A stretch of DNA of 10,785 nt from a virus (Duplodnaviria > Heunggongvirae > Uroviricota > Caudoviricetes), in the IMG/VR virus record IMGVR_UViG_3300029647_000054, positions 1 to 10,785 of that record; one strand, written 5' to 3'. A program made the translations under genes and the position numbers. The stretch's first letter is position 1. Every line of letters begins with the position of its first letter. Positions 1 to 10,785 of this stretch are shown one piece after another. The notes below the pieces were generated by a model. That model was given only the letters and a program-made list of their open reading frames with translations, was not told the origin of the DNA and ran no database searches.

Positions 1-42
1 CAGTTGTTCAGGCTGGCGTGCGAATTGTAAACCAGAATGCCA

Positions 43-71
43 GGAAAAAACAAAACCCGCCGAAGCGGGTT
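43..71 (-). terminator. Rho-independent terminator at the 3' end of the hok transcript
   Basis: Inverted repeat 54-60 / 65-71 (AACCCGC / GCGGGTT) with 4-nt loop; on the minus strand the hairpin is followed by TTGTTTTTT (53-43); lies about 70 nt 3' of the hok stop. Confidence 0.55.
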
Positions 72-139
72 AAGTGCGGGTGCGTTGAGGATGCCTGACT
101 CATCAGAGGTGGCGAGGGATTTCTCCCTCGCCAGGTCTC

Positions 140-295
140 TTACTCCTCAGGTTCGTAAGCTGTGAAGACAGTGACCTCCGTCTGGCCGGTTCGGATTCGT
201 ACCTCGCAGAGGTCTTTCCTCGTTACCAGTGCCGTCACAATGACGGTAATACAGATGACGATCAGGGCGACTAACATCGCCTTTTGCTGCTTCAT
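140..295 (-). CDS. hok: Hok/Gef family type I toxin (51 aa, HokD/HokC-like small membrane toxin)
   Basis: In-frame internal ATG at 295 of the 70-aa track ORF; product MKQQKAMLVALIVICITVIVTALVTRKDLCEVRIRTGQTEVTVFTAYEPEE closely matches my recollection of HokD/HokC; SD AGGAG about 7 nt upstream; single TM helix. Confidence 0.85.
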   Translation of the reverse strand: MKQQKAMLVALIVICITVIVTALVTRKDLCEVRIRTGQTEVTVFTAYEPEE

Positions 296-352
296 AGCCT
301 GCTTCTCCTTGCCTTTCGGCGTGTAAGAGGCTAACCTACATGTGACTAGCAT
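140..352 (-). CDS. mok: Mok-like in-frame upstream reading frame that couples hok translation (70 aa)
   Basis: ATG at 352 in the same frame as hok, as recalled for chromosomal mokC/hokC pairs; existence as a separate regulatory frame is inferred from the hok/sok paradigm. Confidence 0.5.
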   Translation of the reverse strand: MLVTCRLASYTPKGKEKQAMKQQKAMLVALIVICITVIVTALVTRKDLCEVRIRTGQTEVTVFTAYEPEE

Positions 353-410
353 GAAATTGGCCTCAGATTAATGTTAAGCGTCCTGCAAGACGCATAATGT
401 TAACTGGGGC
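340..410 (+). ncRNA. sok: Putative Sok-like antisense RNA overlapping the mok start region (approximate)
   Basis: Inferred from hok/sok architecture only; candidate promoter TTGCCT (309-314) - 17 nt - TAACCT (332-337) on the plus strand; no clean terminator seen, ends not determined. Confidence 0.25.
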
Positions 411-510
411 TTTTCTCTGTCTGCCTTACGGTGGCATGCCCGAGGCAGACAGCCTCAAGCACCCGCAGCAATTCTACTTAACTCTCGCTTTACCGCAAAC
501 CGTTTTTACC

Positions 511-532
511 CGATATGGGAATTCCCATATCG
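511..532. repeat. Perfect 22-bp palindrome CGATATGGGAATTCCCATATCG
   Basis: Read directly: 11-nt arms exactly reverse-complementary with no spacer; not followed by a U-run on either strand. Confidence 0.8.
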
Positions 533-540
533 TAATGAAT

Positions 541-645
541 TCAGTTCCCTAGTCGATCCATCAAAAACACAACCAGGCAGTAAACACCCACAACAGCAAT
601 AACAGCCAGCGCACCTTCCATTGCCAGTGAGATATCATCCGACAC
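541..645 (-). CDS. Small hydrophobic peptide (34 aa, GTG start), single predicted TM helix
   Basis: Not in ORF track (too short). SD AAGGAGG 4 nt upstream of GTG at 645; product VSDDISLAMEGALAVIAVVGVYCLVVFLMDRLGN; start codon uncertain (alternative ATG at 621). Confidence 0.3.
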   Translation of the reverse strand: MSDDISLAMEGALAVIAVVGVYCLVVFLMDRLGN

Positions 646-680
646 ATTCCCTCCTTTGGTGTTAATCCCGGCGAACGCTT

Positions 681-764
681 TTACCCACACCGACAAATAA
701 CATATACTAAAAAAGCGATAGCCATAGCAACGCCTGTAATTGCAAATGCTTCAGGCCAGATCAT
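681..764 (-). CDS. Small hydrophobic peptide (27 aa), single predicted TM helix
   Basis: Not in ORF track. ATG at 764 overlaps the TGA of the upstream DUF551 gene (ATGA); strong SD GGAGG with 7-nt spacing; product MIWPEAFAITAVAMAIAFLVYVICRCG. Confidence 0.4.
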   Translation of the reverse strand: MIWPEAFAITGVAMAIAFLVYVICRCG

Positions 765-1438
765 TGGCGCACCTCCTGCGGCGGTTCTGGTAGCGGCATC
801 CAGTGGGTTACTTTCGATGCCGGTTCTTCCCCATCGTCAGTAACTGCCCACCATTTGTTTCTCGACCAATCGTAATACCCTTCGAAGGTATCGCACTCAG
901 TCCAGCCGTAAGACTTACCCCAACACCAAACATACTGTTTATCGTCCGGAATTCGCTCACTACAGCTTATCCAACCATCCGGAGTTACCGGAGAGCTGGT
1001 TGACGCTTCCGGGATTTTCCGAAAATTATTGGTTGACGAATCTTTATTTTCCCGAAAGTTTCCGGACTGAAGCATGGCTTCGCGGCAATCGTTCCAGCCT
1101 GTAGCGTATGCAGCCGCTTTGCTGCTGCCTTCAACTGGCGCATCCTGCCAATACATTTCTTCCGGCACTACCGGCGCTGGAGGGGCGGCGTAAATGCCCT
1201 CTATCACTAAATGTTTGCGCTCAAAATCATCTGGCTCTCGATGATATACGTAACTCCAATCACCAAGGTTATCATTGCGCCTGCAACGGAAACCTATCGG
1301 CTCTGCTTCCAGCGATGCCAGAGCAATTCGTGCCAGTTCTTCCGCTTCTTCTGCTGGCAGTACAACGTTGCTACCCGGTCCGTATGTTTCGCGCCACTGC
1401 TTGATTGTCAGCAGTCGCTCTTTGGTAATAGTGGTCAT
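761..1438 (-). CDS. DUF551 domain-containing phage protein (225 aa)
   Basis: C-terminal Trp-rich segment (DGWISCSERIPDDKQYVWCWGKSYGWTE...VTHWMPLPEPP) matches the DUF551 pattern I recall from E. coli prophage proteins; ATG start verified. Confidence 0.7.
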   Translation of the reverse strand: MTTITKERLLTIKQWRETYGPGSNVVLPAEEAEELARIALASLEAEPIGFRCRRNDNLGDWSYVYHREPDDFERKHLVIEGIYAAPPAPVVPEEMYWQDAPVEGSSKAAAYATGWNDCREAMLQSGNFRENKDSSTNNFRKIPEASTSSPVTPDGWISCSERIPDDKQYVWCWGKSYGWTECDTFEGYYDWSRNKWWAVTDDGEEPASKVTHWMPLPEPPQEVRQ

Positions 1439-1440
1439 AG

Positions 1441-1629
1441 CTATTTCACCTTAATCTCAACATTTCGCAGCTTTAGCTCTACTGGCAGGTCTGACTTTCC
1501 GGTTAATGCTAATGCGAGATTTTCTGGAGTAATGAGAGCAGTTATTGTTCTACCCATCGCAAGGCGGATAATCAGCCTTATCTCTTCGTCACAAGCGCCA
1601 GGGCGAATAATTGATATTTGTCCGTTCAC
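1441..1629 (-). CDS. Hypothetical small protein (62 aa, GTG start)
   Basis: GTG at 1629 one nt after the upstream TGA, preceded by SD AAAGGAGAG at 5-nt spacing; same geometry as the ATG at 2484. The track's ATG at 1671 would overlap the upstream gene by 41 nt and lacks an SD. Confidence 0.5.
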   Translation of the reverse strand: MNGQISIIRPGACDEEIRLIIRLAMGRTITALITPENLALALTGKSDLPVELKLRNVEIKVK

Positions 1630-1630
1630 C

Positions 1631-1663
1631 TCACTCTCCTTTAATGCGAATGCCAGCGGCGCG
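1631..1663. repeat. Module-junction repeat, copy 1 (about 33 bp, 31/33 identical to copy at 2486-2518)
   Basis: TCACTCTCCTTTAATGCGAATGCCAGCGGCGCG; encodes the shared C-terminal AGIRIKGE tail plus stop and the SD for the next gene. Confidence 0.8.
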
Positions 1664-2164
1664 GGAATCATTCCATCGCTTTACTTCTTCACGAATTACG
1701 TCAATGCATTCTTTCGAATCCATTAGGTAATCTTCATCAAAAAGACGTTCCTGTTCGTTTTCTATCGCAACAATGATTGCTTCAACTAACTTTTGTGCCT
1801 GAGAACCACTTTCTAACTCTGCAATGCGCTGTTTTACGGTATCAAGTTCAATCGATAATTTTTCCAACTGCTCTTTATGCTTCTTGTATTCCTGATATGC
1901 GTGCCAGGACTGACCTTTGCGCACACTATCAGTAATATCAGTAATCTGTTCTGGTGTTAGCGTAGTCAGTGGCTGTGCTGGGAAAATCAGCACTTTCCCG
2001 GAATCCCAATCAAAACCAGCGTGAATTGACTGAACCTCAACTGATGGTGTTGAACCGATGCGACCAGGCGAATGAACAACGATCGTTACATCCATATCTC
2101 GACGATGGCTGTGGTTGCTGGACAAAATACGATTCACCAACTCAGAAAATTTGGAAAATTTCAT
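1631..2164 (-). CDS. Hypothetical protein (177 aa) with coiled-coil C-terminus ending AGIRIKGE
   Basis: ATG at 2164 overlaps the upstream TGA (ATGA), SD AGAGGG at 7 nt; the track ORF's extra 43 N-terminal residues would overlap the upstream gene; last 8 residues identical to the Ea22-like protein. Confidence 0.6.
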
Positions 2165-2484
2165 GTTGATCCCTCTTTCTCTCCCCGGATAATTCTGTTG
2201 CACACATCCACACACTCGTCGCAGATGAAAACGGCGTCCCCAGCAATTAACTTTTTGACGGCGTACTGGGATTTGTTGCAGAAGCTGCAACAAAGTGTTC
2301 GCCTGACTGATAAGGATGGAGCGCCAGATGTCAGCCGCTCCATATCGTTCTTGCGACGCAATATCACACGGCTGAACTCAACCAGTTTCTCCGGGGATAT
2401 CTCCTCCTCCGTAGCGAGCGTCTCTAGTCGTTCGAGTATGTTGAAGGCTTTTTCCTGGGTAATAGCAGAATGCGATGTGGTCAT
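2161..2484 (-). CDS. Small protein with ClpX N-terminal zinc-binding-domain-like C4 zinc finger (107 aa)
   Basis: [38 protein letters not shown] aligns with ClpX N-terminus ([37 protein letters not shown], from memory) with identical CxxC-x18-CxxC spacing; ATG at 2484 with SD AAAGGAGAG. Confidence 0.75.
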
Positions 2485-2485
2485 C

Positions 2486-2518
2486 TCACTCTCCTTTGAT
2501 GCGAATGCCAGCGACGCG
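2486..2518. repeat. Module-junction repeat, copy 2
   Basis: TCACTCTCCTTTGATGCGAATGCCAGCGACGCG; same coding/SD content as copy 1. Confidence 0.8.
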
Positions 2519-3181
2519 TGGCACATTAACTTCCACGATGCGCACATTTGGTTTGTACATCTCAATCGCTGTCAGCCAGTCAGCGCCAGTCATGCGCTTT
2601 TCTGCATCGCCATTAGTCCACTTAACCGGTACACCAATAGCCTTCATCGCGATTTCTATTTCCCCGGCAATGGTGCTTTTTCCGCAACCAGTAAAACCAG
2701 ATACAACGACCAGAACTTCACCTTTGGCTGGTTTTATTTCCCGCGCTTCCAGTTCTGCTATGCGCTTACTTCCATCCGAGATAACACCTTCGTAATACTC
2801 ACGCTGCTCGTTGAGTTTTGATTTTGTCTCCTCAAGCTCAACGCGCAGCTTCCCTACCGTTAACGCAATATCCTCGTTCTCCTGGTCGCGGCGTTTGATG
2901 TATTGCTGGTTTCTTTCCCGTTCATCCAGCAGTGCCAAGACAGCAGTCGGATTGGCCTCTGCTATGAACTCAGCGTTTGCATAAGCCTGAGCATCTGTTT
3001 CAACCAGGCAGTTAACATGACATTCTGCAATCACGCCACCGGGTTCTCCTTTCCATTTTTGACAAACAAAAACTCCTGTTAAATTGCCGTGCTGGTTAAC
3101 AGATGTATGCCCTACGATGTAGCTTCCTTTAGTTGCTTTCTCTGCCTTTTCACGCAGTGCCTGATAGTTAATCTCGCTCAC
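2486..3181 (-). CDS. Ead/Ea22-like protein with C-terminal Walker A (P-loop) motif (231 aa, GTG start)
   Basis: N-terminal region with [20 protein letters not shown] motif typical of Ea22-like proteins as I recall them; central coiled coil; [10 protein letters not shown]-loop; GTG overlaps upstream TGA (GTGA) with SD GGAGGA at 6 nt. Confidence 0.7.
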
Positions 3182-3402
3182 TCTTCATCCTCCAAGTCGG
3201 CAACGGCGTCCATCACATCAGAACCGCGAATAACCTCAAAAGCACGGCAGGCCATTTGAAATACCAGTTGCTCTTGCGGGTGAGGAGACTCCCAATATTT
3301 GAAGCCTGGGCGATGCGTGTACCCCATCATTGAATAAAAATCACCAGCAAGCTTAATCGCGGCATCGACAAGCTCTCTGTTAGTCATTCTTTTTCCGCTC
3401 AC
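3178..3402 (-). CDS. Hypothetical small protein (74 aa, GTG start)
   Basis: GTG at 3402 overlaps the upstream TGA; SD AAGGAGG at 6 nt; no family recognised. Confidence 0.5.
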   Translation of the reverse strand: MSGKRMTNRELVDAAIKLAGDFYSMMGYTHRPGFKYWESPHPQEQLVFQMACRAFEVIRGSDVMDAVADLEDEE

Positions 3403-3749
3403 TGGTTGCCTCCTTTGCGAAGCTGGGCGGCTAACTCATCACATATGTGCGTCAAAGAACAAAGTTTGATTGATGGATGTTCGCGCATCATCTCTACCCC
3501 CTGCGCCCGCACTTCAGACAGGAAAGCATCGGTGGCTGGCATATTTCCTGTTGCCTTCATTGCCTCCAAAATAACCAGAACGCCATCTCGCCCAATCTCC
3601 TCGCAGATAACCTCGGTGCTGTCGCCAACAACATCGCAAAATGCCTGAACTGCTTTACGAGCCAGCGCATCTTCCGCCCTGTGAAACGCCTCGCGGTTGA
3701 AATTTTCATATCCCGTCATTGGACCGGCAATATAAACTCTGACCCTCAC
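3399..3749 (-). CDS. DUF4406-like (nucleoside 2-deoxyribosyltransferase-like fold) phage protein (116 aa, GTG start)
   Basis: N-terminal VYIAGPMTG motif characteristic of DUF4406 as I recall it; rest of protein did not match my memory of the family; GTG overlaps upstream TGA with SD AGGAGG at 7 nt. Confidence 0.55.
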   Translation of the reverse strand: MRVRVYIAGPMTGYENFNREAFHRAEDALARKAVQAFCDVVGDSTEVICEEIGRDGVLVILEAMKATGNMPATDAFLSEVRAQGVEMMREHPSIKLCSLTHICDELAAQLRKGGNQ

Positions 3750-4138
3750 TCCATCACCTCCTGAAAGTTTCCCCGATAGAACGCCAGCACACGCTGCATA
3801 ACTTCGCTCCTCCTGCTCTCACGACAAATTATGTTCTGCCGTCTGTTGTAACGACGTATTTCTCCGTCAGGTAACTTTCGAATCAGTGTCGGGTCAGCAG
3901 CCTTCTCCGGTGTCTTACGCCATACGCGATACGCCTGCTCTGATGGAAATACCCCGCAACCAGAGAGCCAGACATCACCACTGGCCGCAAGCGCACCAGA
4001 TAAACGACGAATAGCGGTCTTACTGACACCCGTTTTATCTGCCAGTTGTCGAAAAGTTTCTCGTCCGCTCAGGCGCACGAATTCCACAATGCGCGCCTTC
4101 ACTTCTTCCCGCTCTTCTGGTGTAAATACTTTTGCCAT
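3746..4138 (-). CDS. Putative HTH DNA-binding protein (130 aa)
   Basis: ATG at 4138 with SD GGAGG at 5 nt (track start at 4153 is TTG); helix-turn-helix-like segment FRQLADKTGVSKTAIRRLSG. Confidence 0.6.
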   Translation of the reverse strand: MAKVFTPEEREEVKARIVEFVRLSGRETFRQLADKTGVSKTAIRRLSGALAASGDVWLSGCGVFPSEQAYRVWRKTPEKAADPTLIRKLPDGEIRRYNRRQNIICRESRRSEVMQRVLAFYRGNFQEVME

Positions 4139-4153
4139 AAGCGCCTCCGGCAA

Positions 4154-4879
4154 TCACTTTTCCGATACAACACGGCGGGAAGAATCAGTAATCTGTCGAA
4201 CAATATCCCGGTGCTTGTTCAGCTCCCGCAGCGCGGCGCAGACTCGCTCCCACTTCTGAACCTGACCTTTTGCCCGGCGCAGCTCGCGGTTAGCCACATG
4301 CAGCGATGGTAAAATCAGACCATCCGGATGTTTTCTGGTGAACGACGGCTGTGACTGCACTGTGACCGCCACACTTTCCGTTTTTATTTCTTCCTGTGTT
4401 TCTGCTTCCCGGACAGGTAACGCAACACCTGCTGGCTGAGGAAAGGCTTTACCGTCGGTTTCCGCTACGGATGCAGCTTCCGGCTCTGCCGGTAAATCAG
4501 CGCCCGGTATGCAGTAACGAAATTTACCGCCCTGATTCACGCGAATCAGACGCCCTTTGCTGATTGCCATGGCCAGCGATGAATTCGCCCGGCGGGAGGT
4601 AATCCCGAACATCAGTGCCAGCTCATCCGCCGTTTGTGGGCCATGTTGTTCAATCGCCTCAGTCAGCATTTGCGCTGTCACTTTCGGTACCGGTGACACC
4701 GGTTCACTTTCACCAGCCTGAATCAGCCGCCACATCGAACCCTTGTTATCCGCTTCACCGCGGCGCTTCAGTTTCCACAGTTCGTTGACCGCATCTTCAC
4801 GGCTGATTCCAAGGCGGGACGCCACTACCTGTGAAGAGGCTCTTTTCAGTGCTTTCAGTGCGTCAAATACGGTTTCCAT
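4154..4879 (-). CDS. Hypothetical phage protein with two winged-helix-like segments (241 aa)
   Basis: ATG at 4879 with SD GGAGG at 8-nt spacing (track start at 4897 is TTG and contains that SD); two internal segments resembling winged-helix DNA-binding folds. Confidence 0.65.
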
Positions 4880-4912
4880 TAAAATTTCCTCCGACAAAAT
4901 CGTTTCTCAGAT

Positions 4913-5575
4913 TCAAATAAAACCAGCTGCCTTCCGGCGTTCGTATTCCTGTTTCAGCCGTTCAATTGGCGTTGGCCCTTGCGGGTGTTTCGCCCCTTCC
5001 AGTTGTCGTCGCACTGGCGGAACACTCATCCCGTTACCAACATGCTTTGCCCATTTCGTCAGTTGCCGTTCCGCAAGTCGTTTTAACTCACCCTGCGTCA
5101 TCTGGCGCTCAATCCCTCTGGTACGCATTTCGAGGCAGATGTGGTACAGCACAGGCTGTGGCCACGGGTATTTATCACTCCCGTCGTATCGCCAGGATTC
5201 ATTGCGCCAGCGCCGGTACTCTTCCATCACGGCATCCACCGTAAGACCAAATGGATTTGCCCCACTCTCCGAAATCAGCGCAACAAACTCAGCCAGGTCC
5301 GGGGGCCACGTTTCACCCGCCCGGCAGCGGTCCATGCACTGACGGCAGACCAGCCGGATTTGCTGTTCAGTCATCGTGCCAATCTGGGCAATCCAGAGCT
5401 TCGAAGGTGCGGCCCCGTTCTTCTGAGTCCAGCGGTTCGAATACACCTCCCCCATAAGCTCCCACAGCTTCCAGGCCATTTCCGTTGCTGATAAATCCGT
5501 TGTCTCGTTCCCACTGTTCGCGTGCTGCCCGGATTTCCTGAACTGCCCGTGATGCCGTGCCACCTGATGCTGCAT
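4913..5575 (-). CDS. Replication protein P-like (lambda P family helicase loader), up to 220 aa
   Basis: Similarity to lambda P as recalled (W-x-A...TMxEQ, FxP-P--F-A, YPW motifs); ATG at 5575 has SD AAGGGGG at 6 nt; start uncertain (alternatives 5479, 5455); overlaps O-like frame. Confidence 0.7.
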   Translation of the reverse strand: MQHQVARHHGQFRKSGQHANSGNETTDLSATEMAWKLWELMGEVYSNRWTQKNGAAPSKLWIAQIGTMTEQQIRLVCRQCMDRCRAGETWPPDLAEFVALISESGANPFGLTVDAVMEEYRRWRNESWRYDGSDKYPWPQPVLYHICLEMRTRGIERQMTQGELKRLAERQLTKWAKHVGNGMSVPPVRRQLEGAKHPQGPTPIERLKQEYERRKAAGFI

Positions 5576-6404
5576 GGCTTACCCCCTTGCTGACTGGTTT
5601 TACCTGTGTCCTGACGTGCTGCACGTGGCGGGCAAATTTCTGCTCCCACTGAACCTGTGTGAAAACCTTCCCCTCCGCCATCCAGTAATCCCGGAATGCG
5701 GCAAGCTCTGCAGGTGTAAATTCCGGCTCAGGCAGAGCCATACCCCACACTGCTGCCCGTTGTCGAAAATCCGACGACGGCTGCCAGACAGTAGTCATCG
5801 AAAATTTCCCGATCGGTTCGCTCAGGCCGTCCAGGTATTCAGGTTCGGCTGTCTGCAACGGCGCACCATGCGACTCACCGGTTGGAGCACTCTCGCGCAT
5901 GCGCGCGTTATGTGTGGGGTTTAATTCTGTATCTGTATCTTTATCTGTCGTGACTTGTCGTGACAGATGCGTGACACGTCGTGACTCATCGTGACAATCA
6001 GCATCATATTTCCGCAGCTTTTCGCGCTCCCGCTGCGCTCTCTTGCGCTCTGCCGGGGATTTTGCCGTTTGCGAAACGTTACCATTGTCCTCTTTCAGCA
6101 CCTGACGTTTTTCCCATCCGGAAATAAGGTCACCATCCAGAACCCGCCCCTGCATTGCATGCAAAATTGAATCAATTACGTCTTCCGTCACATCAAGCGC
6201 ACTTGCTAAATCTTCCGTCGTGACATCAATGTGACCACGTAGTGACACGCCGTGACATGTCGTGACATTTCGTGACGCACTCACCAGAAGGTGGATATAC
6301 ACCGCCATCACTGTTGCGATTGGCTGTCCTGAGACCCTGGCAATGGTTCGCCATTTGGGATCATTTGGCATGTCATGCCACAATCTGAGCCAGGCATTAG
6401 CCAT
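5367..6404 (-). CDS. Replication initiator / replisome organizer (lambda O-like) with internal iterons (345 aa)
   Basis: N-terminus MANAWLRLWHDMPNDPKWR resembles phage replisome-organizer N-domains; iteron clusters inside the coding region; ATG at 6404 with SD GAGG at 5 nt (track start 6410 is GTG). Confidence 0.75.
   Translation of the reverse strand: MANAWLRLWHDMPNDPKWRTIARVSGQPIATVMAVYIHLLVSASRNVTTCHGVSLRGHIDVTTEDLASALDVTEDVIDSILHAMQGRVLDGDLISGWEKRQVLKEDNGNVSQTAKSPAERKRAQREREKLRKYDADCHDESRRVTHLSRQVTTDKDTDTELNPTHNARMRESAPTGESHGAPLQTAEPEYLDGLSEPIGKFSMTTVWQPSSDFRQRAAVWGMALPEPEFTPAELAAFRDYWMAEGKVFTQVQWEQKFARHVQHVRTQVKPVSKGVSHAASGGTASRAVQEIRAAREQWERDNGFISNGNGLEAVGAYGGGVFEPLDSEERGRTFEALDCPDWHDD
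5948..5995. repeat. Iteron cluster 1: five direct repeats of (T/G)CGTGAC at 10-11 bp spacing, preceded by a 6-bp periodic (TATCTG-like) tract
   Basis: CGTGAC at 5949, 5959, 5970, 5980, 5990; adjacent tract 5924-5947; read directly. Confidence 0.7.
6220..6276. repeat. Iteron cluster 2: six direct repeats of GTGAC at 10-11 bp spacing
   Basis: GTGAC at 6220, 6231, 6242, 6252, 6262, 6272; read directly; about 270 bp from cluster 1, both inside the O-like gene. Confidence 0.7.
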
Positions 6405-6472
6405 ACTCACCTCATCTGATACCGAACTTTACCCTCGAACATCCGGAAGAAATCCGGCATGAATATTGTTGG

Positions 6473-6898
6473 TCAATGCACGACAACAGCATTACCAGGC
6501 TGACCACCACTGTTAGTCAGGGTGCCCCAGGCGATCGCCGCTGCGACAAAATCATCCACATCTTTCACCAGCCGATCCCTCCGTTCGACGATCTCACGGT
6601 AATATTCAGAGCTGTGACTGCGCATACGGGCCACCAGCAAAGGCGGCATCGCCTTTTCGATCGCCGGTAACAGAGCCTGCATTTTTTCAACAGCATCAGG
6701 GGTGTCTTTATCCAGCCAACGGAAAATTTTCTGGGTATTACGGGCCAGGGCTTCCGGATGGCTGTCGTCATACAGTTCCGGGAACGTCATTCCCAGCTCG
6801 AAATACGCTTTGGTAATTTTCGCAGCCGGTACTTTTTCGCCGTCCGGATGCGCCCAGACATTCATCGCCATGCGGATGTGTTCATGCTTGATTTTCAT
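6473..6898 (-). CDS. YdaT-like protein in the cII position (141 aa)
   Basis: Starts MKIKHEHI and ends VVVH as I recall for Rac YdaT; ATG overlaps the Cro-like gene's TGA (ATGA); family assignment from memory only. Confidence 0.55.
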   Translation of the reverse strand: MKIKHEHIRMAMNVWAHPDGEKVPAAKITKAYFELGMTFPELYDDSHPEALARNTQKIFRWLDKDTPDAVEKMQALLPAIEKAMPPLLVARMRSHSSEYYREIVERRDRLVKDVDDFVAAAIAWGTLTNSGGQPGNAVVVH

Positions 6899-7158
6899 GA
6901 ATCAACTCCCAGCGCGGGTTGTGTGTTAGCCTGATAGTCAACAGGTATGCCATCGGTTGGGTTGGGGTAAGTACTGCTATCAATCTCGTGCGGGGTCACT
7001 ACCCACCCTGTTGCTTCACACCAGCGTAAAACTTTCCCCCCCGTAAGTTTCGCCCGTCCAGTAATAACATGGCTTACCATCCCTTGGGTTACCCCAACAA
7101 TTTCAGCAAAATCTTTCTGGGTTATACGGGAATGATGCAAATATTCTCCAAGATTCAT
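6895..7158 (-). CDS. Cro-like HTH transcriptional regulator (YdaS/Cro family, 87 aa)
   Basis: HTH segment QKDFAEIVGVTQGMVSHVITG; divergent from the CI-like repressor across an operator-containing intergenic region; SD GAGGTG 4 nt before ATG. Confidence 0.75.
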   Translation of the reverse strand: MNLGEYLHHSRITQKDFAEIVGVTQGMVSHVITGRAKLTGGKVLRWCEATGWVVTPHEIDSSTYPNPTDGIPVDYQANTQPALGVDS

Positions 7159-7188
7159 TGTTCACCTCATGTTATGTGACCATGAATA

Positions 7189-7230
7189 TTAATAGCATTG
7201 TTATTTTTAAAAGTAAATAGCACTGCTATT
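7189..7230. promoter_or_regulatory. OR-like region: two 15-bp palindromic operators plus a PR-like promoter for the Cro-like gene
   Basis: Operators AATAGCATTGTTATT (7191-7205) and AATAGCACTGCTATT (7216-7230); on the minus strand TTTACT (-35, 7217-7212), 17-nt spacer, TATTAA (-10, 7194-7189). Confidence 0.65.
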
Positions 7231-7265
7231 TCAAAGAGATTAATAATCTTATTAGAATTGAAGGT

Positions 7266-7766
7266 ATGAAAAGAAAACCCCTGTCAGAGATCGACCTGCA
7301 AGCCGCCCAGAGACTGAAAGAAATCTGGACGACGAAAAAAACTCAACTTGGGTTAACCCAAGAGCGTGCGGCAGAAATTCTGGGTTTTTCGACACAAGGG
7401 GCAGTAAGCCATTATCTAAATGGTCAGACACCTTTAAATCTAGAGGCTGTTATCAAGTTCGCTGGGTTGCTACAAGTTCCGCCTGAGTCAATTAGACCAG
7501 ATATGGCAGACTTGTTACGAATTGTAAGGATGTACCCCCAAGAACTGCAGCAGGATAATGTTGTCGCTTTACCCGCAGAGATGGAACAATCGGAAAACGA
7601 ACTTCCGTTTAATATAGAACCTATAGAGCGAGATTTGATCCAGACGTTCAGGGCTTTCCCAAAAGAAGACAAAGAGAAAATGCTTAAGGAAATGAAGGAG
7701 AAAAAAGAATCAATTGAAGAAACCGTTGCGCGGTGGCTAGAGGCGCAAAAAGGTCTTCGCGCCTAA
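7266..7766 (+). CDS. paaR: CI-like HTH repressor, regulator of the three-component TA module (PaaR-like, 166 aa); no S24 peptidase domain
   Basis: N-terminal HTH (LGLTQERAAEILGFSTQGAVSHYLNG); divergent from Cro-like gene; directly upstream of antitoxin-toxin pair; C-terminus too short and lacks a LexA-like autocleavage domain. Confidence 0.75.
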   Translation: MKRKPLSEIDLQAAQRLKEIWTTKKTQLGLTQERAAEILGFSTQGAVSHYLNGQTPLNLEAVIKFAGLLQVPPESIRPDMADLLRIVRMYPQELQQDNVVALPAEMEQSENELPFNIEPIERDLIQTFRAFPKEDKEKMLKEMKEKKESIEETVARWLEAQKGLRA

Positions 7767-7783
7767 TCTGAGGAGGTTAGAAC

Positions 7784-7975
7784 ATGAGTACAGTCCTTTC
7801 CCCGATAATTTCAGAATTTGAAACAATCGAACAAGAAAACAGCTATAACGAATGGTTACGCACCAAAGTGGCAGCAAGCCTCGCAGACCCCCGTCCTGCA
7901 ATTCCGCATGACGAAGTAATGGCTGAAATGGAAAACCTTATTGCGCAAATAGCTTCGACGAACAGGAGTGAGTAA
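7784..7975 (+). CDS. paaA: PaaA-like antitoxin (63 aa)
   Basis: 63-aa acidic protein immediately upstream of and overlapping (TAATG) the ParE toxin gene; matches my recollection of the PaaA2 antitoxin from E. coli O157 paaR2-paaA2-parE2; SD GAGGAGG at 8 nt. Confidence 0.7.
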   Translation: MSTVLSPIISEFETIEQENSYNEWLRTKVAASLADPRPAIPHDEVMAEMENLIAQIASTNRSE

Positions 7976-8265
7976 TGCTGCCCATTTTATGGCTACCTTC
8001 TGCGCGTGATGATTTGCGTCAGATCGTAGCCTATATTGCCAAGGAAAACCCTCCCGCTGCACGTAGACTAAAAATACGCATTGAAACATCAGTTTTGTCA
8101 CTTACTGAACACCCTTACCTGTATCCACCAAGCGAAAGAGCCCTAGGCCTTCGTGAGATAGTGACCCATCCTAACTACATAATACTTTACCGAGTAACAG
8201 CATCTAACATCGAGATCGTAAATGTAGTTCACTCACGAAGGCAGTATCCAAACAAAAGCTGTTAA
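7975..8265 (+). CDS. parE: ParE/RelE-superfamily toxin (ParE-like, 96 aa)
   Basis: Typical ParE sequence features (LPILWLPSARDDLRQIVAYI...EHPYLYPPSE...REIV); start overlaps antitoxin stop by 1 nt. Confidence 0.8.
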   Translation: MLPILWLPSARDDLRQIVAYIAKENPPAARRLKIRIETSVLSLTEHPYLYPPSERALGLREIVTHPNYIILYRVTASNIEIVNVVHSRRQYPNKSC

Positions 8266-8280
8266 TCATTCCTACCAACA

Positions 8281-8304
8281 ACCACCTTCGGGTGGTTTTT
8301 TTTT
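8281..8304 (+). terminator. Rho-independent terminator after parE
   Basis: ACCACC-TTCG-GGTGGT hairpin followed by a run of nine T. Confidence 0.8.
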
Positions 8305-8320
8305 CTTACCTCCAAAAAAC

Positions 8321-8362
8321 AATAGCATTACTATTTACAGAATAAAATAGCAGTGCTATTGT
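8321..8362 (+). promoter_or_regulatory. OL-like region: two 15-bp palindromic operators plus a PL-like promoter driving the dicB-type operon
   Basis: Operators AATAGCATTACTATT (8321-8335) and AATAGCAGTGCTATT (8346-8360); TTTACA (-35, 8334-8339), 17-nt spacer, TATTGT (-10, 8357-8362); mirrors the OR architecture. Confidence 0.65.
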
Positions 8363-8538
8363 TTATTCATCACCCACCCTCCCCACAGAATGCAGGGCAA
8401 TACTTCGAGTTACCCGGCAGTGGTCAGGGGTTAAGTAGCCAGCCCGAGGCGTATGAACATGACGGCGGGAACACTTTGTATAACAGCGCAGCAGGTTTTT
8501 GTTCCGCTACCCCGGCGTTAAGGGGAAATGAGGTCAGC

Positions 8539-8691
8539 ATGGATACTATCGAGCTTGGCAACAGCGAATCTCTGGTATGCGGCGTGTTTCCCAACCAGGA
8601 CGGCACGTTTACCGCGATGACGTATACCAGAAGCAAAACGTTTAAAACGGAAGCTGGCGCGCGTCGCTGGTTAGCAAGAAGCTCTGACTGA
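8539..8691 (+). CDS. Small protein (50 aa), first gene of the PL-type operon; possibly YdfA/YdaF (DUF1391)-like
   Basis: ATG with SD GAGG at 5 nt; in frame with the track ORF whose GTG start lies inside the operator; family assignment is positional only. Confidence 0.4.
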   Translation: MDTIELGNSESLVCGVFPNQDGTFTAMTYTRSKTFKTEAGARRWLARSSD

Positions 8692-8789
8692 TGAAGGTTA
8701 GTAATTAAAGAGTTCTCCACAGGCGAAGTGGAATACGTTCGCAGGACACGGGTAAGCATTCGGCATGCTCTTTAACAATCTGGGTATTC

Positions 8790-9236
8790 CTAACCACAAA
8801 GGAATCGCATCAATTTGGATTTTGCAGACAGTTTCTCTTGTTGTTCTACGGAGATTCCTATTTTGATCTGGGTTTTTAAGATTGCGATATCTTTAAGCGA
8901 CGACCAAATATTATCATCTGTTTTTTCCAGGAGCTTTAACTGCATTTTCAATTCCGAATCGGAATATTTTTCTGCATCATCATAAAGCTGCAGATATTCT
9001 GCGGATTTTCTCATTGCGTTACCTGACTTTTGTCCGAATCCGTAAATCGTTTGAACGGTTGCTATCACAACAATGAGAACTCCAGAAACTTCAGGAATAA
9101 ATCCACCAATGACAGATGAACCGAGGATAATACTCACCACTGAGAAAAGTTTATCGAGACGACCAGTCGCTACAGAGAATAGTTGTTCAAGAAAATAACC
9201 ATATAAAACCCTGTCAAGAATATCATCCCGGTCCAT
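8790..9236 (-). CDS. AT-rich two-TM membrane protein with coiled-coil-like C-terminus (148 aa); candidate superinfection-exclusion (sieB-position) protein
   Basis: Opposite strand to the surrounding operon; SD AGGTG at 8 nt; hydrophobic segments LFSVVSIILGSSVIGGFI and VLIVVIATVQTIYGF; clearly lower GC than neighbours; function inferred from position. Confidence 0.55.
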   Translation of the reverse strand: MDRDDILDRVLYGYFLEQLFSVATGRLDKLFSVVSIILGSSVIGGFIPEVSGVLIVVIATVQTIYGFGQKSGNAMRKSAEYLQLYDDAEKYSDSELKMQLKLLEKTDDNIWSSLKDIAILKTQIKIGISVEQQEKLSAKSKLMRFLCG

Positions 9237-9295
9237 ATATCATCACCTGCTTGTTTGATTGTTGCTGTTCCCCCTCTCCTCTGAAGGAGCTGGAG

Positions 9296-9484
9296 ATGGT
9301 TTTGGTCGAATGTTTTTCTCAGGTATATGTTTCCTGGTATTCGGAATGTCCGCCCTGTCCGCAGGCTTACCAGTACCTGAACAATTCTTTTGAACCACCA
9401 TATAAAACACCTTCCTGTTGTTGGGGATATCCAGATTATACAGATTTCCTGTTATTGGGGAATGACGGAAACCACCTCGCCTGA
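9296..9484 (+). CDS. Small Cys-rich protein (62 aa), hypothetical
   Basis: ATG with SD GAAGGAG at 6 nt; six Cys including CPPCP and SCCW; preferred over the overlapping low-complexity minus-strand ORF. Confidence 0.4.
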   Translation: MVLVECFSQVYVSWYSECPPCPQAYQYLNNSFEPPYKTPSCCWGYPDYTDFLLLGNDGNHLA

Positions 9485-9699
9485 CGTGGTTAAAAGCAGG
9501 CACACAACACGAAAGCGCACGGCGAGATTCCTTTGCATATAAGGCTTGTCGTTAAATTTCTTCGACCGTGCACTTCCGGTTGTGGCAGTCCGCGAAATGG
9601 CGCGGCGGTAAGTATGGCTGGGGCTTCCTCCATTGCTCCAGAAAATGCACCGGGTCGTCAGGTTGACCATACGCTTAAGTGACAGCCCCGCCACAATAC

Positions 9700-9757
9700 C
9701 CATGTGTAGTATTTGGTGGCATCAGTTCTACTCCGTGACTGCTCTGCCACCCTTTTT
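9700..9757 (+). ncRNA. dicF: DicF-like small RNA (ftsZ-targeting sRNA family) with intrinsic terminator
   Basis: TTTGGTGGCATCAGTTCTACTCCGTGACTGCTCTGCCACCCTTTTT closely matches my recollection of K-12 DicF, with compensatory stem changes; sits directly upstream of dicB as in Qin. Confidence 0.7.
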
Positions 9758-9761
9758 AAAG

Positions 9762-9922
9762 TGAATTTTGTGATGCGGTGAATGCGGCTATGCGCACGCG
9801 GAACAGTTAAAACCGTAAAGTGGTCTTTTACGGGGCGTAACGGGCATCCTTCTGTATTCCGGCGTTAATTGTTAACTGGTTAACGTCACCTGGAGGCACC
9901 AGGCACCGCATCACAAAATTCA
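9762..9922 (+). repeat. Long-range 19-nt perfect inverted repeat (TGAATTTTGTGATGCGGTG at 9762-9780 and its reverse complement at 9904-9922) bracketing 123 nt between dicF and dicB
   Basis: Read directly; would form a 19-bp RNA duplex in the operon transcript. Confidence 0.7.
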
Positions 9923-9939
9923 TTGTTGAGGACGCGATA

Positions 9940-10128
9940 ATGGAAACGTTATTACCAAACGTTAATACGTCTGAAGGTTGTTTTGATATTGGTGTTCTGC
10001 TCAGTAACCGGGAGTTTACGGAAGATGCCATTAAGATGAGAAAATATGAACCTTATCTTCTCAATGATAATTCCATACTTTCCAGAATTGCCCTTCTTGA
10101 ACTTGGTATTATCGGAGAACAGCAGTGA
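9940..10128 (+). CDS. dicB: Cell division inhibitor DicB (62 aa)
   Basis: N-terminal 35 residues (METLLPNVNTSEGCFDIGV...FTEDAI) closely match K-12 DicB as recalled; C-terminus diverges; SD GAGGA at 7 nt. Confidence 0.85.
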   Translation: METLLPNVNTSEGCFDIGVLLSNREFTEDAIKMRKYEPYLLNDNSILSRIALLELGIIGEQQ

Positions 10129-10313
10129 CTTCAGCATTTGCACTGGTGATGACCGTTTTTCTTATAACGGGTGAGCCACAAAATGTGATTACCGGAATTT
10201 ATGACAGTAAGTCATCCTGCATTCAGGTAAGGGACGAACAAAAAATCCCCGGTGAATGCCTCCCGTTAAAAAAAGTATCGCTGAACCTGAATAACGAAAT
10301 ACCGGCTGGATAA
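10125..10313 (+). CDS. ydfD: YdfD-like small membrane/lysis protein (62 aa, GTG start)
   Basis: GTG overlaps the dicB stop (GTGA), SD GGAGAA at 5 nt; N-terminal hydrophobic helix; assignment by position in the dicB operon and size. Confidence 0.5.
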   Translation: MTSAFALVMTVFLITGEPQNVITGIYDSKSSCIQVRDEQKIPGECLPLKKVSLNLNNEIPAG

Positions 10314-10408
10314 CCCGCCAGCCATATTAACACCATACCAACGGATTAAAAATGCCAGCAATGGCAGGGATTCGTTCACCCTGAAATCTGTAATGAGGTT
10401 AAAACAAA

Positions 10409-10785
10409 ATGAGTAAAGTCTTTATTTGCGCCGCTATTCCTGACGAACTGGCAACAAGGGAAGAAGGCGCTGTGGCTGTAGCCACAGCCATTGAAGCTGG
10501 CGACGAACGCCGTGCTCGAGCAAAATTTCACTGGCAATTCCTGGAACATTATCCGGCTGCTCAGGACTGCGCTTATAAATTTATTGTCTGCGAGGATAAA
10601 CCCGGCATACCCCGCCCTGCCCTCGATTCATGGGATGCTGAATATATGCAGGAAAACCGCTGGGATGAGGAGTCTGCTTCCTTTGCCCCGGTTGAGACTG
10701 AATCAGATCCGATGAACGTCACTTTTGACAAGCTGGCCCCTGAAGTACAGAACGCTGTCATGGTTAAGTTCGACACATGTGAAAA
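10409..10785 (+). CDS. Partial CDS (runs off the window end, at least 125 aa), YdfE-position hypothetical protein
   Basis: ATG at 10409 with SD GAGG; open frame to the window end; not in the track because no stop is reached. Confidence 0.55.
   Translation, partial: MSKVFICAAIPDELATREEGAVAVATAIEAGDERRARAKFHWQFLEHYPAAQDCAYKFIVCEDKPGIPRPALDSWDAEYMQENRWDEESASFAPVETESDPMNVTFDKLAPEVQNAVMVKFDTCE

Follow-up and report, generated by a model that had tools for sequence, protein, structure and literature searches.

The window analysed here, i.e. the whole stretch of 10,785 nucleotides given by positions 1 to 10,785 of the IMG/VR virus record IMGVR_UViG_3300029647_000054 (Caudoviricetes), is part of an E. 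coli-type lambdoid prophage, and contains at two of its gene boundaries nearly identical copies (J1 and J2) of a short block of sequence in which the end of one reading frame is fused to the start of the next. All the genes and features concerned are on the minus strand, a point on which a preliminary description of this DNA, made from its letters alone, has to be corrected. From right to left, the order on this strand is cro-like, YdaT-like, DnaT-like and P-like replication genes, DUF1627, DUF977, and then the genes that we refer to as g3 to g9 (Table 1). Neither promoter-like nor terminator-like signals above background were found within this gene string or at the junction, and the minus-strand string looks like a single operon. 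Some open reading frames (ORFs) of the plus strand run over the blocks (2072-2821, 1211-1726, 2475-2795); they were judged spurious, as they have no PHROG matches and are antisense to well-supported genes. The closest relative among complete genomes is E. coli SW070917, with 98.4% identity and 83% of the window covered. At a coverage of at least 80%, the 1.9-kb arrangement of the window is present in none of 5426 complete E. coli genomes, and its pieces are present in 2874 of them: the arrangement is therefore a unique combination of common parts.

The consensus of the block on the minus strand is (CGCGYC) GCT GGC ATT CGC ATY AAA GGA GAG TGA N RTG; it comprises the codons for a protein tail with sequence AGIRIKGE, an AAGGAG ribosome-binding site contained within those codons, the stop codon, a spacer of 1 nt, and the start codon of the next gene. 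J1 (2518-2482) reads CGCGTC GCTGGCATTCGCATCAAAGGAGAG TGA G ATG, with the AGIRIKGE codons at 2489-2512, the stop at 2486-2488, the spacer at 2485, and the start of g6 at 2482-2484. J2 (1663-1627) reads CGCGCC GCTGGCATTCGCATTAAAGGAGAG TGA G GTG, with the tail codons at 1634-1657, the stop at 1631-1633, the spacer at 1630, and the GTG start of g8 at 1627-1629. In both cases AAGGAG falls in the K-G-E codons, 6 nt ahead of the next start, which itself lies 1 nt past the stop; as far as can be judged from the letters, this is the classical layout of translational coupling. The two 37-nt blocks are identical at 34 positions, and the 33-mers 2481-2513 and 1626-1658 at 31 of 33 (counted by hand); in a repeat search of the window the match spans 1626-1672 and 2481-2527 (40/47 identical). 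Over the 60 nt that flank J1 and J2 on each side, identity is 17/60, which is the level expected by chance. A 28-mer, GCTGGCATTCGCATYAAAGGAGAGTGAG, has exactly 2 occurrences in the window with up to 3 mismatches allowed, none being expected on the basis of 200 shuffles, and BLASTP aligns only the last 13 residues of g5 and g7 (10/13 identical). The preliminary description had claimed that these two proteins end alike in AGIRIKGE, that the DNA around each stop is identical at 31 of 33 positions and takes in the tail codons, the stop and the ribosome-binding site of the next gene, and that the sequence on either side is unrelated; all these statements are borne out.

Table 1. Genes, junction blocks and linker of the g3-g9 region, in coordinates of the window.
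Feature	Coordinates	Strand	Family or composition
g3, DUF4406 chimera	3399-3749	minus	
g4, 74-aa gene	3178-3402	minus	
g5, 231-aa Ead_Ea22 protein	2486-3181	minus	Pfam PF13935
g6, 107-aa ClpX C4-type zinc-finger protein	2161-2484	minus	Pfam PF06689
g7, 177-aa chimera	1631-2164	minus	phrog_6026 head + Ea22-type C-terminal cassette
g8, 62 aa, GTG start, function unassigned	1441-1629	minus	phrog_1222
g9, DUF551 protein	761-1438	minus	
Junction block J1 (g5/g6)	2482-2518	minus	
Junction block J2 (g7/g8)	1627-1663	minus	
Second linker of like design (g3/g4)	3395-3437	minus	

Two other identities for the block were considered and rejected. A structured RNA element finds no support, as J1 and J2 have no match in Rfam and fold no better than shuffled sequences (z-scores +0.58 and −0.11). 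The recombination hotspot Chi is the octamer GCTGGTGG; the block starts with GCTGGCAT, so that just the first five bases (GCTGG) agree. No inverted repeat in or around the block emerged from the repeat search of the window.

The proteins that carry the tail are themselves mosaics. In g5, which matches PF13935 with a score of 141.5 bits versus a gathering cutoff of 27 (E = 3e-41), the Ead_Ea22 head and coiled coil (residues 2-145) are followed by the coiled-coil motif RIAELE (2747-2764), a small C-terminal domain and AGIRIKGE, and the PHROG matches fall into distinct N-terminal, middle and C-terminal modules. In g7 the head (residues 1 to ~112, phrog_6026) is followed by the same motif (1811-1828), by a cassette SGSQAQ...RWNDSR and by AGIRIKGE. 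There is no match of g7 to PF13935, and by the domain criterion its sequence makes it a chimera and not a member of the Ead/Ea22 family. Its last ~65 residues, from RIAELE onward, constitute a C-terminal cassette that is found on canonical Ead_Ea22 heads in other phages; in a comparison with one related locus, L158, the cassette and the tail are carried by a different head, and the g7 head is elsewhere joined to at least 4 other C-terminal cassettes. The statement that the tail is shared by "two different proteins" consequently holds for the head of g7, which is not of the Ea22 type, but not for its last ~65 residues, which are an Ea22-type cassette. The AlphaFold model of g7 is poor (mean predicted local distance difference test, pLDDT, of 54), with the tail modelled as coil at the lowest pLDDT (34). 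As a side observation, the C-terminal ~80 residues of g5 (2489-2740, minus strand) form a small domain with a Walker A motif, GFTGCGKST, marginally similar to the P-loops of SRP54 and APS-kinase and too short for a normal NTPase; a PDB sequence search with g5 yielded marginal P-loop similarities only.

RIAELE is conserved as protein, with 5 of its 18 bases differing between the two copies. The edges of high-scoring segment pairs (HSPs) with relatives fall at this motif, and heads and C-terminal cassettes of Ea22-like proteins combine freely; on sequence grounds RIAELE is an intragenic mosaic joint common to g5 and g7. Downstream of the blocks, the module that follows J1 is g6 (PF06689, E = 1e-15), and the same gene is annotated in relatives by the Prokaryotic Genome Annotation Pipeline (PGAP). 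The gene that follows J2, g8, belongs to the type that the block most often has on its right in other loci: among the downstream protein clusters, that of g8 is the largest, with 18 of the 76 unique proteins. Its GTG start is supported by the alignment of phrog_1222 (63 aa), which begins at residue 16 of the longer, 76-aa ORF; an alternative start at ATG 1671, from which the 76-aa frame would run through the block in another frame, was rejected, as phrog_1222 and the 63-aa homologues start 1 nt past the stop.

The block is by no means unique to this genome. A scan of IMG/VR with a pattern in which every wobble position was left free retrieved at least 120 contigs, and 95 of the 122 matches listed contain the exact 27-mer of J1. 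With a 40-mer of the block as query, matches were obtained in 1486 of the 5426 complete E. coli genomes, which hold about 2,000 copies altogether, as many as 6 of them in a single genome and 150 on plasmids; further matches were obtained in 180 phage records, which include lambda, Stx1a and Stx2a (Shiga toxin) phages, phiV10, a P22-like Salmonella phage and the plasmid-prophage SJ46, and in 148 plasmid records, 140 of them non-mobilizable and mostly of ~80-115 kb among the examples listed. The lambda copy (J02459 29844-29874) is the 3' end of ea22: AGIRIKGE is the C-terminus of lambda Ea22 itself, and it is found on other Ead_Ea22 proteins as well, with TGIRIKGE and AGVRIKGE as near-variants. 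With respect to genomic context, 31 loci have the block after the replication genes, with DUF1627/DUF977 as in the window, and 29 have it in an exo-xis-int setting as in lambda. A scan of species-representative genomes for taxonomic range was uninformative, as 29 of its 37 matches are lambda DNA contaminating unrelated assemblies; among loci L121-L157 the contaminating lambda includes ~48.5-kb contigs as well as low-coverage contigs of ~1 kb, and the assemblies affected belong to taxa such as Streptomyces, Bacillus, Prevotella and an archaeon.

What stands on either side of the block varies extensively. Anchored clustering of 120 nt on each side of the 119 junctions from viral contigs among the matches listed yields 15 left and 27 right flank types in 63 combinations; BLAST clustering of the encoded proteins yields 40 upstream clusters (among them Ead_Ea22, several families without Pfam match, an HNH endonuclease) and 31 downstream clusters (among them DUF551, ClpX zinc-finger, many unknowns). 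The flanking modules are thus not a fixed unit. Conservation by column approaches 100% between about −6 and +31 of the block start, and is at chance level beyond. The points at which homology is lost or gained were determined from pairs of unique junction contexts with one flank shared and the opposite flank unrelated. Of the 234 pairs with the same left flank (at least 95% shared), 230 lose homology at +27 to +39 of the block start, a span that reaches from the stop codon into the opening codons of the following gene, and the other 4 at +72; in pairs with the same right flank, homology is gained at −7 to +3 in all 155 cases.

The same behavior can be recognized when the window is aligned with individual relatives. 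Between 10367 and 2482, the edge of J1, the window is 98.5% identical to E. coli SW070917 (locus L160), a distance of 7.9 kb; below 2482 the genes are different until 1438, the start codon of g9. The HSP edges with L158 are at 1626 and 2518, the block edges, and at 1830, the RIAELE joint. Conservation at a gene boundary, non-homologous flanks that reassort, and breakpoints that coincide with the conserved segment are the marks by which lambdoid boundary sequences are recognized, and all three are found here. The reassortment of the flanks and the position of the breakpoints also lend support to the proposal of the preliminary description that the junction is a recombination linker for the swapping of modules.

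The constraint that acts on the block can be approached through its silent positions. Third-position pairwise diversity, computed across 94 unique upstream genes, is about 0.04-0.05 for AGIRIKGE; the corresponding values are 0.38 for RIAELE, 0.27 for ALLDE, 0.18 for both IALTVGKL and AELEARE, 0.13 for a sixth comparison motif of 10 residues, and 0.11 for QENEDIAL, with 0.19 for the conserved DUF551 tail. The silent positions of the tail are therefore 3-9 times more conserved than those of other conserved motifs in the same genes. This near-absence of silent variation could derive from homogenisation by repeated exchange, from selection on the DNA, or from both. These values bear directly on an explanation in which purifying selection would keep AGIRIKGE as a C-terminal peptide with a function of its own (for example as a tag for partner binding, oligomerisation or degradation), and a domain boundary would suffice to account for the identity of the DNA and for the breakpoints. 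Such a role would fit with a tail that is essentially invariant, that continues a long ORF in frame in 105 of the 119 junctions, that keeps its peptide character in the near-variants, and that very different C-terminal domains all retain. It does not account for silent positions so much less variable than those of neighbouring conserved motifs, nor for two sets of loci in which the block has another setting. In 12 loci it lies 30 nt past the stop of DUF977, with just 8 open codons before it and still ahead of a coupled DUF551 gene, so that there it is not a protein tail. In another locus (L068, 1099-1608 on the oriented strand) the gene that ends in frame in the AGIRIKGE tail encodes an unrelated HNH_3+AP2 endonuclease; it is placed between a ...RKGGKQ-type linker and the AGIRIKGE linker, which is the usual slot of an Ea22-like gene. 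The low-confidence AlphaFold model of g7, with its coil tail, also speaks against a peptide function, as does the structural work on lambda Ea22 by nuclear magnetic resonance, in which an AlphaFold extension of helix alpha-2 "beyond the domain" was judged implausible (PMC10834534); together they provide weak hints that the extreme C-terminus may be an appendage outside the fold. On balance we regard a selected peptide as quite improbable, and the tail itself is probably unimportant for function.

Similar considerations apply to the possibility that the block is conserved solely as a translational-coupling cassette, with modules joined at random by illegitimate events and selection keeping the joints that fall at a working signal. 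The signal is well preserved, as anticipated in the preliminary description: in J1, in J2 and in 102 of the 122 junctions listed, a start codon follows 1 nt past the stop with AAGGAG 6 nt ahead of it, and the ribosome-binding site would be expected to drive coupled translation. In several other genes of the region, too, the codons of a ...KGE or ...KGG-type tail contain a ribosome-binding site, and the gene string is the one in which no promoters or terminators were found. However, the 12-18 nt before the ribosome-binding site (CGCGCC GCT GGC ATT CGC), which have no role in initiation, are equally invariant; the 63 combinations all have the same 27-37 nt, which independent illegitimate events would not recreate; the ribosome-binding-site contexts at other boundaries of the operon are different; and in lambda the identical block is intact though no start codon follows, which indicates that coupling alone does not explain its conservation. 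We consider this explanation unlikely. Even less plausible, to the point of being very improbable, is that the block is the recognition site of a dedicated enzyme, such as a site-specific recombinase, or a homing/HNH endonuclease that would promote exchange by cutting there. The idea draws on the endonuclease gene that ends in the block in L068, and on a partial HNH gene just upstream of the Ea22-like gene in L158; yet HNH genes are present in a tiny minority of loci (one among those inspected for it), no recombinase or HNH gene is near the blocks in the window, and the block itself has neither inverted-repeat nor core-site architecture, no significant single-strand fold, no match in Rfam, and only its first five bases in common with Chi.

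We think it likely, instead, that lambdoid and related temperate phages have in this block a short homology linker, which serves for the exchange of modules and also carries the translational-coupling signal. Three elements are combined in the block: the closing 8-10 codons of the gene upstream, a strong ribosome-binding site for the gene that follows, and a stop and a start separated by 1 nt. With the same 27-40 bases placed between unrelated gene bodies, a crossover could occur inside the block whenever phage or prophage genomes share a cell, catalyzed by annealases of the Red-beta/RecT/Erf type or by RecA; it would swap everything on one side, and restore automatically an in-frame stop and a coupled start. 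Recombinants would be immediately expressible because the segment holds stop, ribosome-binding site and start. Red-beta is reported to need a segment of at least 23-27 bp for efficient pairing, and RecA one of at least 31-34 bp, and exchange on short or diverged homology is attributed mainly to Rad52-like phage recombinases (PMC3945230); the shared length of the block, 27-39 bp, matches the minimum for Red-beta and approaches that for RecA. On this reading, homologous recombination within the block would be the mechanism of exchange, and the block may be maintained for this purpose.

Several observations weigh against this interpretation or limit its reach. For RecA, 27-31 bp of common sequence would be a marginal length. 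The almost invariant amino acids of the tail, in frame in ~90% of the junctions, leave room for a peptide-level role, and part of the block (AAAGGAGAGTGAnATG) would stay conserved for translation alone. The gene g9 follows g8 in the window and the block elsewhere, and other boundaries of the same region swap in the absence of the block, which is thus not necessary for exchange. The loci were picked for containing the block and are mostly E. coli prophages, and as such are neither independent of each other nor an unbiased sample of gene boundaries. Furthermore, the pattern marks where homology ends, and not how the joints arose.

A second linker of similar design is found at the g3/g4 boundary (...GCCGCCCAGCTTCGCAAAGGAGGCAACCAGTGAGCG), where the tail is AAQLRKGGNQ, the ribosome-binding site is AAGGAGG, and the TGA stop overlaps the GTG start. 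Across the fetched loci it occurs in 17 contexts, with 9 left and 10 right clusters and a third-position diversity of 0.03. In other phages the start that overlaps the AAQLRKGGNQ stop is usually the Ea22 start MSEINYQ, and many proteins with the head of g7 end in ...QLRKGG(K/N)Q, the tail type of g3. This linker brackets the 5' side of the ea22-like gene, with an 8-nt repeat, AGTGAGCG, at its stop/start overlap; in the window the same 8 nt are directly repeated at both stop/start overlaps of g4 (3178-3402, minus strand), and g4 looks like a cassette inserted into the QLRKGGNQ-Ea22 junction. As regards g3, the match to DUF4406 (nucleoside 2-deoxyribosyltransferase-like) is confined to the first ~31 residues, and the remainder matches unrelated PHROG families. 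In Ea22-like proteins, RIAELE and the tail block thus bracket an exchangeable C-terminal domain, and the two linkers bracket whole genes. A more ambitious hypothesis, which we find rather unlikely, is that the AGIRIKGE block, the AAQLRKGGNQ/AGTGAGCG linker on the 5' side and RIAELE make up a standardised "cassette grammar", kept by second-order selection for exchangeability or as self-propagating linkers, by which accessory genes could be inserted in frame into phage-plasmids and, in lambdoid, Stx, P22-like and phiV10 phages, into either early operon, the exchange being perhaps stimulated by nucleases such as the slot-occupying HNH enzyme.

The window contains other elements away from the g-gene string. 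On the minus strand, a hok/sok type I toxin-antitoxin system (140-464) comprises an Rfam match to sok at 290-464 and a Hok-like ORF at 140-352. On the plus strand, a RelB/RelE-type toxin-antitoxin pair (7784-8265), annotated likewise in the near-identical SW070917 locus, lies directly downstream of a repressor-like helix-turn-helix gene (7266-7766); operator-like repeats AATAGCAnTGCTATT, both direct and inverted, flank this repressor/relBE block at 7191-7230 and 8321-8360. Further on, the small RNA DicF (9701-9752, plus strand, 62 bits in Rfam) is followed by the ORF of a DicB-like cell-division inhibitor (9940-10128, plus strand). Four iteron-like copies of TGTCGTGAC at 5946-6276, inside the DnaT-like/O-like replication gene, are probably the origin of replication.

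These results can be viewed in the context of the debate on phage mosaicism, in which random illegitimate joining followed by selection is set against homologous exchange at short conserved linkers. The block provides an unusually clean and abundant example for the linker side, with a fixed segment of 27-37 nt, dozens of modules, sharp breakpoints and conservation at the nucleotide level; since it is also present in lambda, it offers an easily engineered site for measuring the effect of a linker on exchange rates. It also explains why ea22 forms the border between conserved and variable gene sets in Stx phages. For annotation, homology beyond the tail should not be taken for granted in proteins that end in AGIRIKGE, and the PGAP name "ead/Ea22-like" covers a shuffled set of heads and C-terminal domains.

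Translational coupling with the ribosome-binding site in the upstream coding sequence is a general feature of bacterial and phage operons. The junctions described here resemble coupled gene pairs in having AAGGAG 6 nt ahead of the start, and stop and start 1 nt apart; they differ in that ordinary coupled pairs are specific to two genes, whereas the fixed cassette described here is common to dozens of gene pairs that are unrelated. The modular theory of lambdoid phages is said to go back to Susskind and Botstein in 1978, and boundary sequences in HK620/P22-type genomes were reportedly described by Clark et al. in 2001. This work is cited in PMC3233612 and PMC2327257. Like lambdoid boundary sequences, the block is short, common to a subset of phages, located at a gene boundary with non-homologous flanks that reassort, and a proposed point of crossover; unlike generic boundary sequences, it is partly coding (the last 8-10 codons), and bundles ribosome-binding site, stop and start. 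No description of the block was found in the searched literature under the string "IRIKGE", though its presence among the boundary sequences of Clark et al. 2001 could not be checked.

The mosaicism of Ea22 proteins has already been described (PMC10834534; PMC8614690). As in the proteins of the window, a variable head is joined in those cases to a coiled coil and to an exchangeable C-terminal domain, and the C-terminal sequences are said to "bear no similarity" except for a 16-residue segment in two variants (PMC10834534; PMC8614690). These papers cover mosaicism of the protein, and not a tail or junction conserved at the level of DNA or the reassortment of its neighbours; furthermore, the ea22-type genes of the window come after the replication genes, as opposed to the exo-xis region of the described cases. 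Recombination on short or relaxed homology by Rad52-like annealases (Red-beta, RecT, Erf) has been proposed as a driver of mosaicism, and about a third of natural mosaics have traces of flanking homology (PMC2327257; PMC3945230). This enzymology would be able to act on an identical segment of 27-39 bp; however, the annealase studies deal with diverged "shoulders" of hundreds of bases, whereas here a single, near-perfect and very short block drops sharply to chance on both sides. Overall, the concept of a linker is a familiar one for lambdoid phages, and the block is a clear new example of it, not a new kind.

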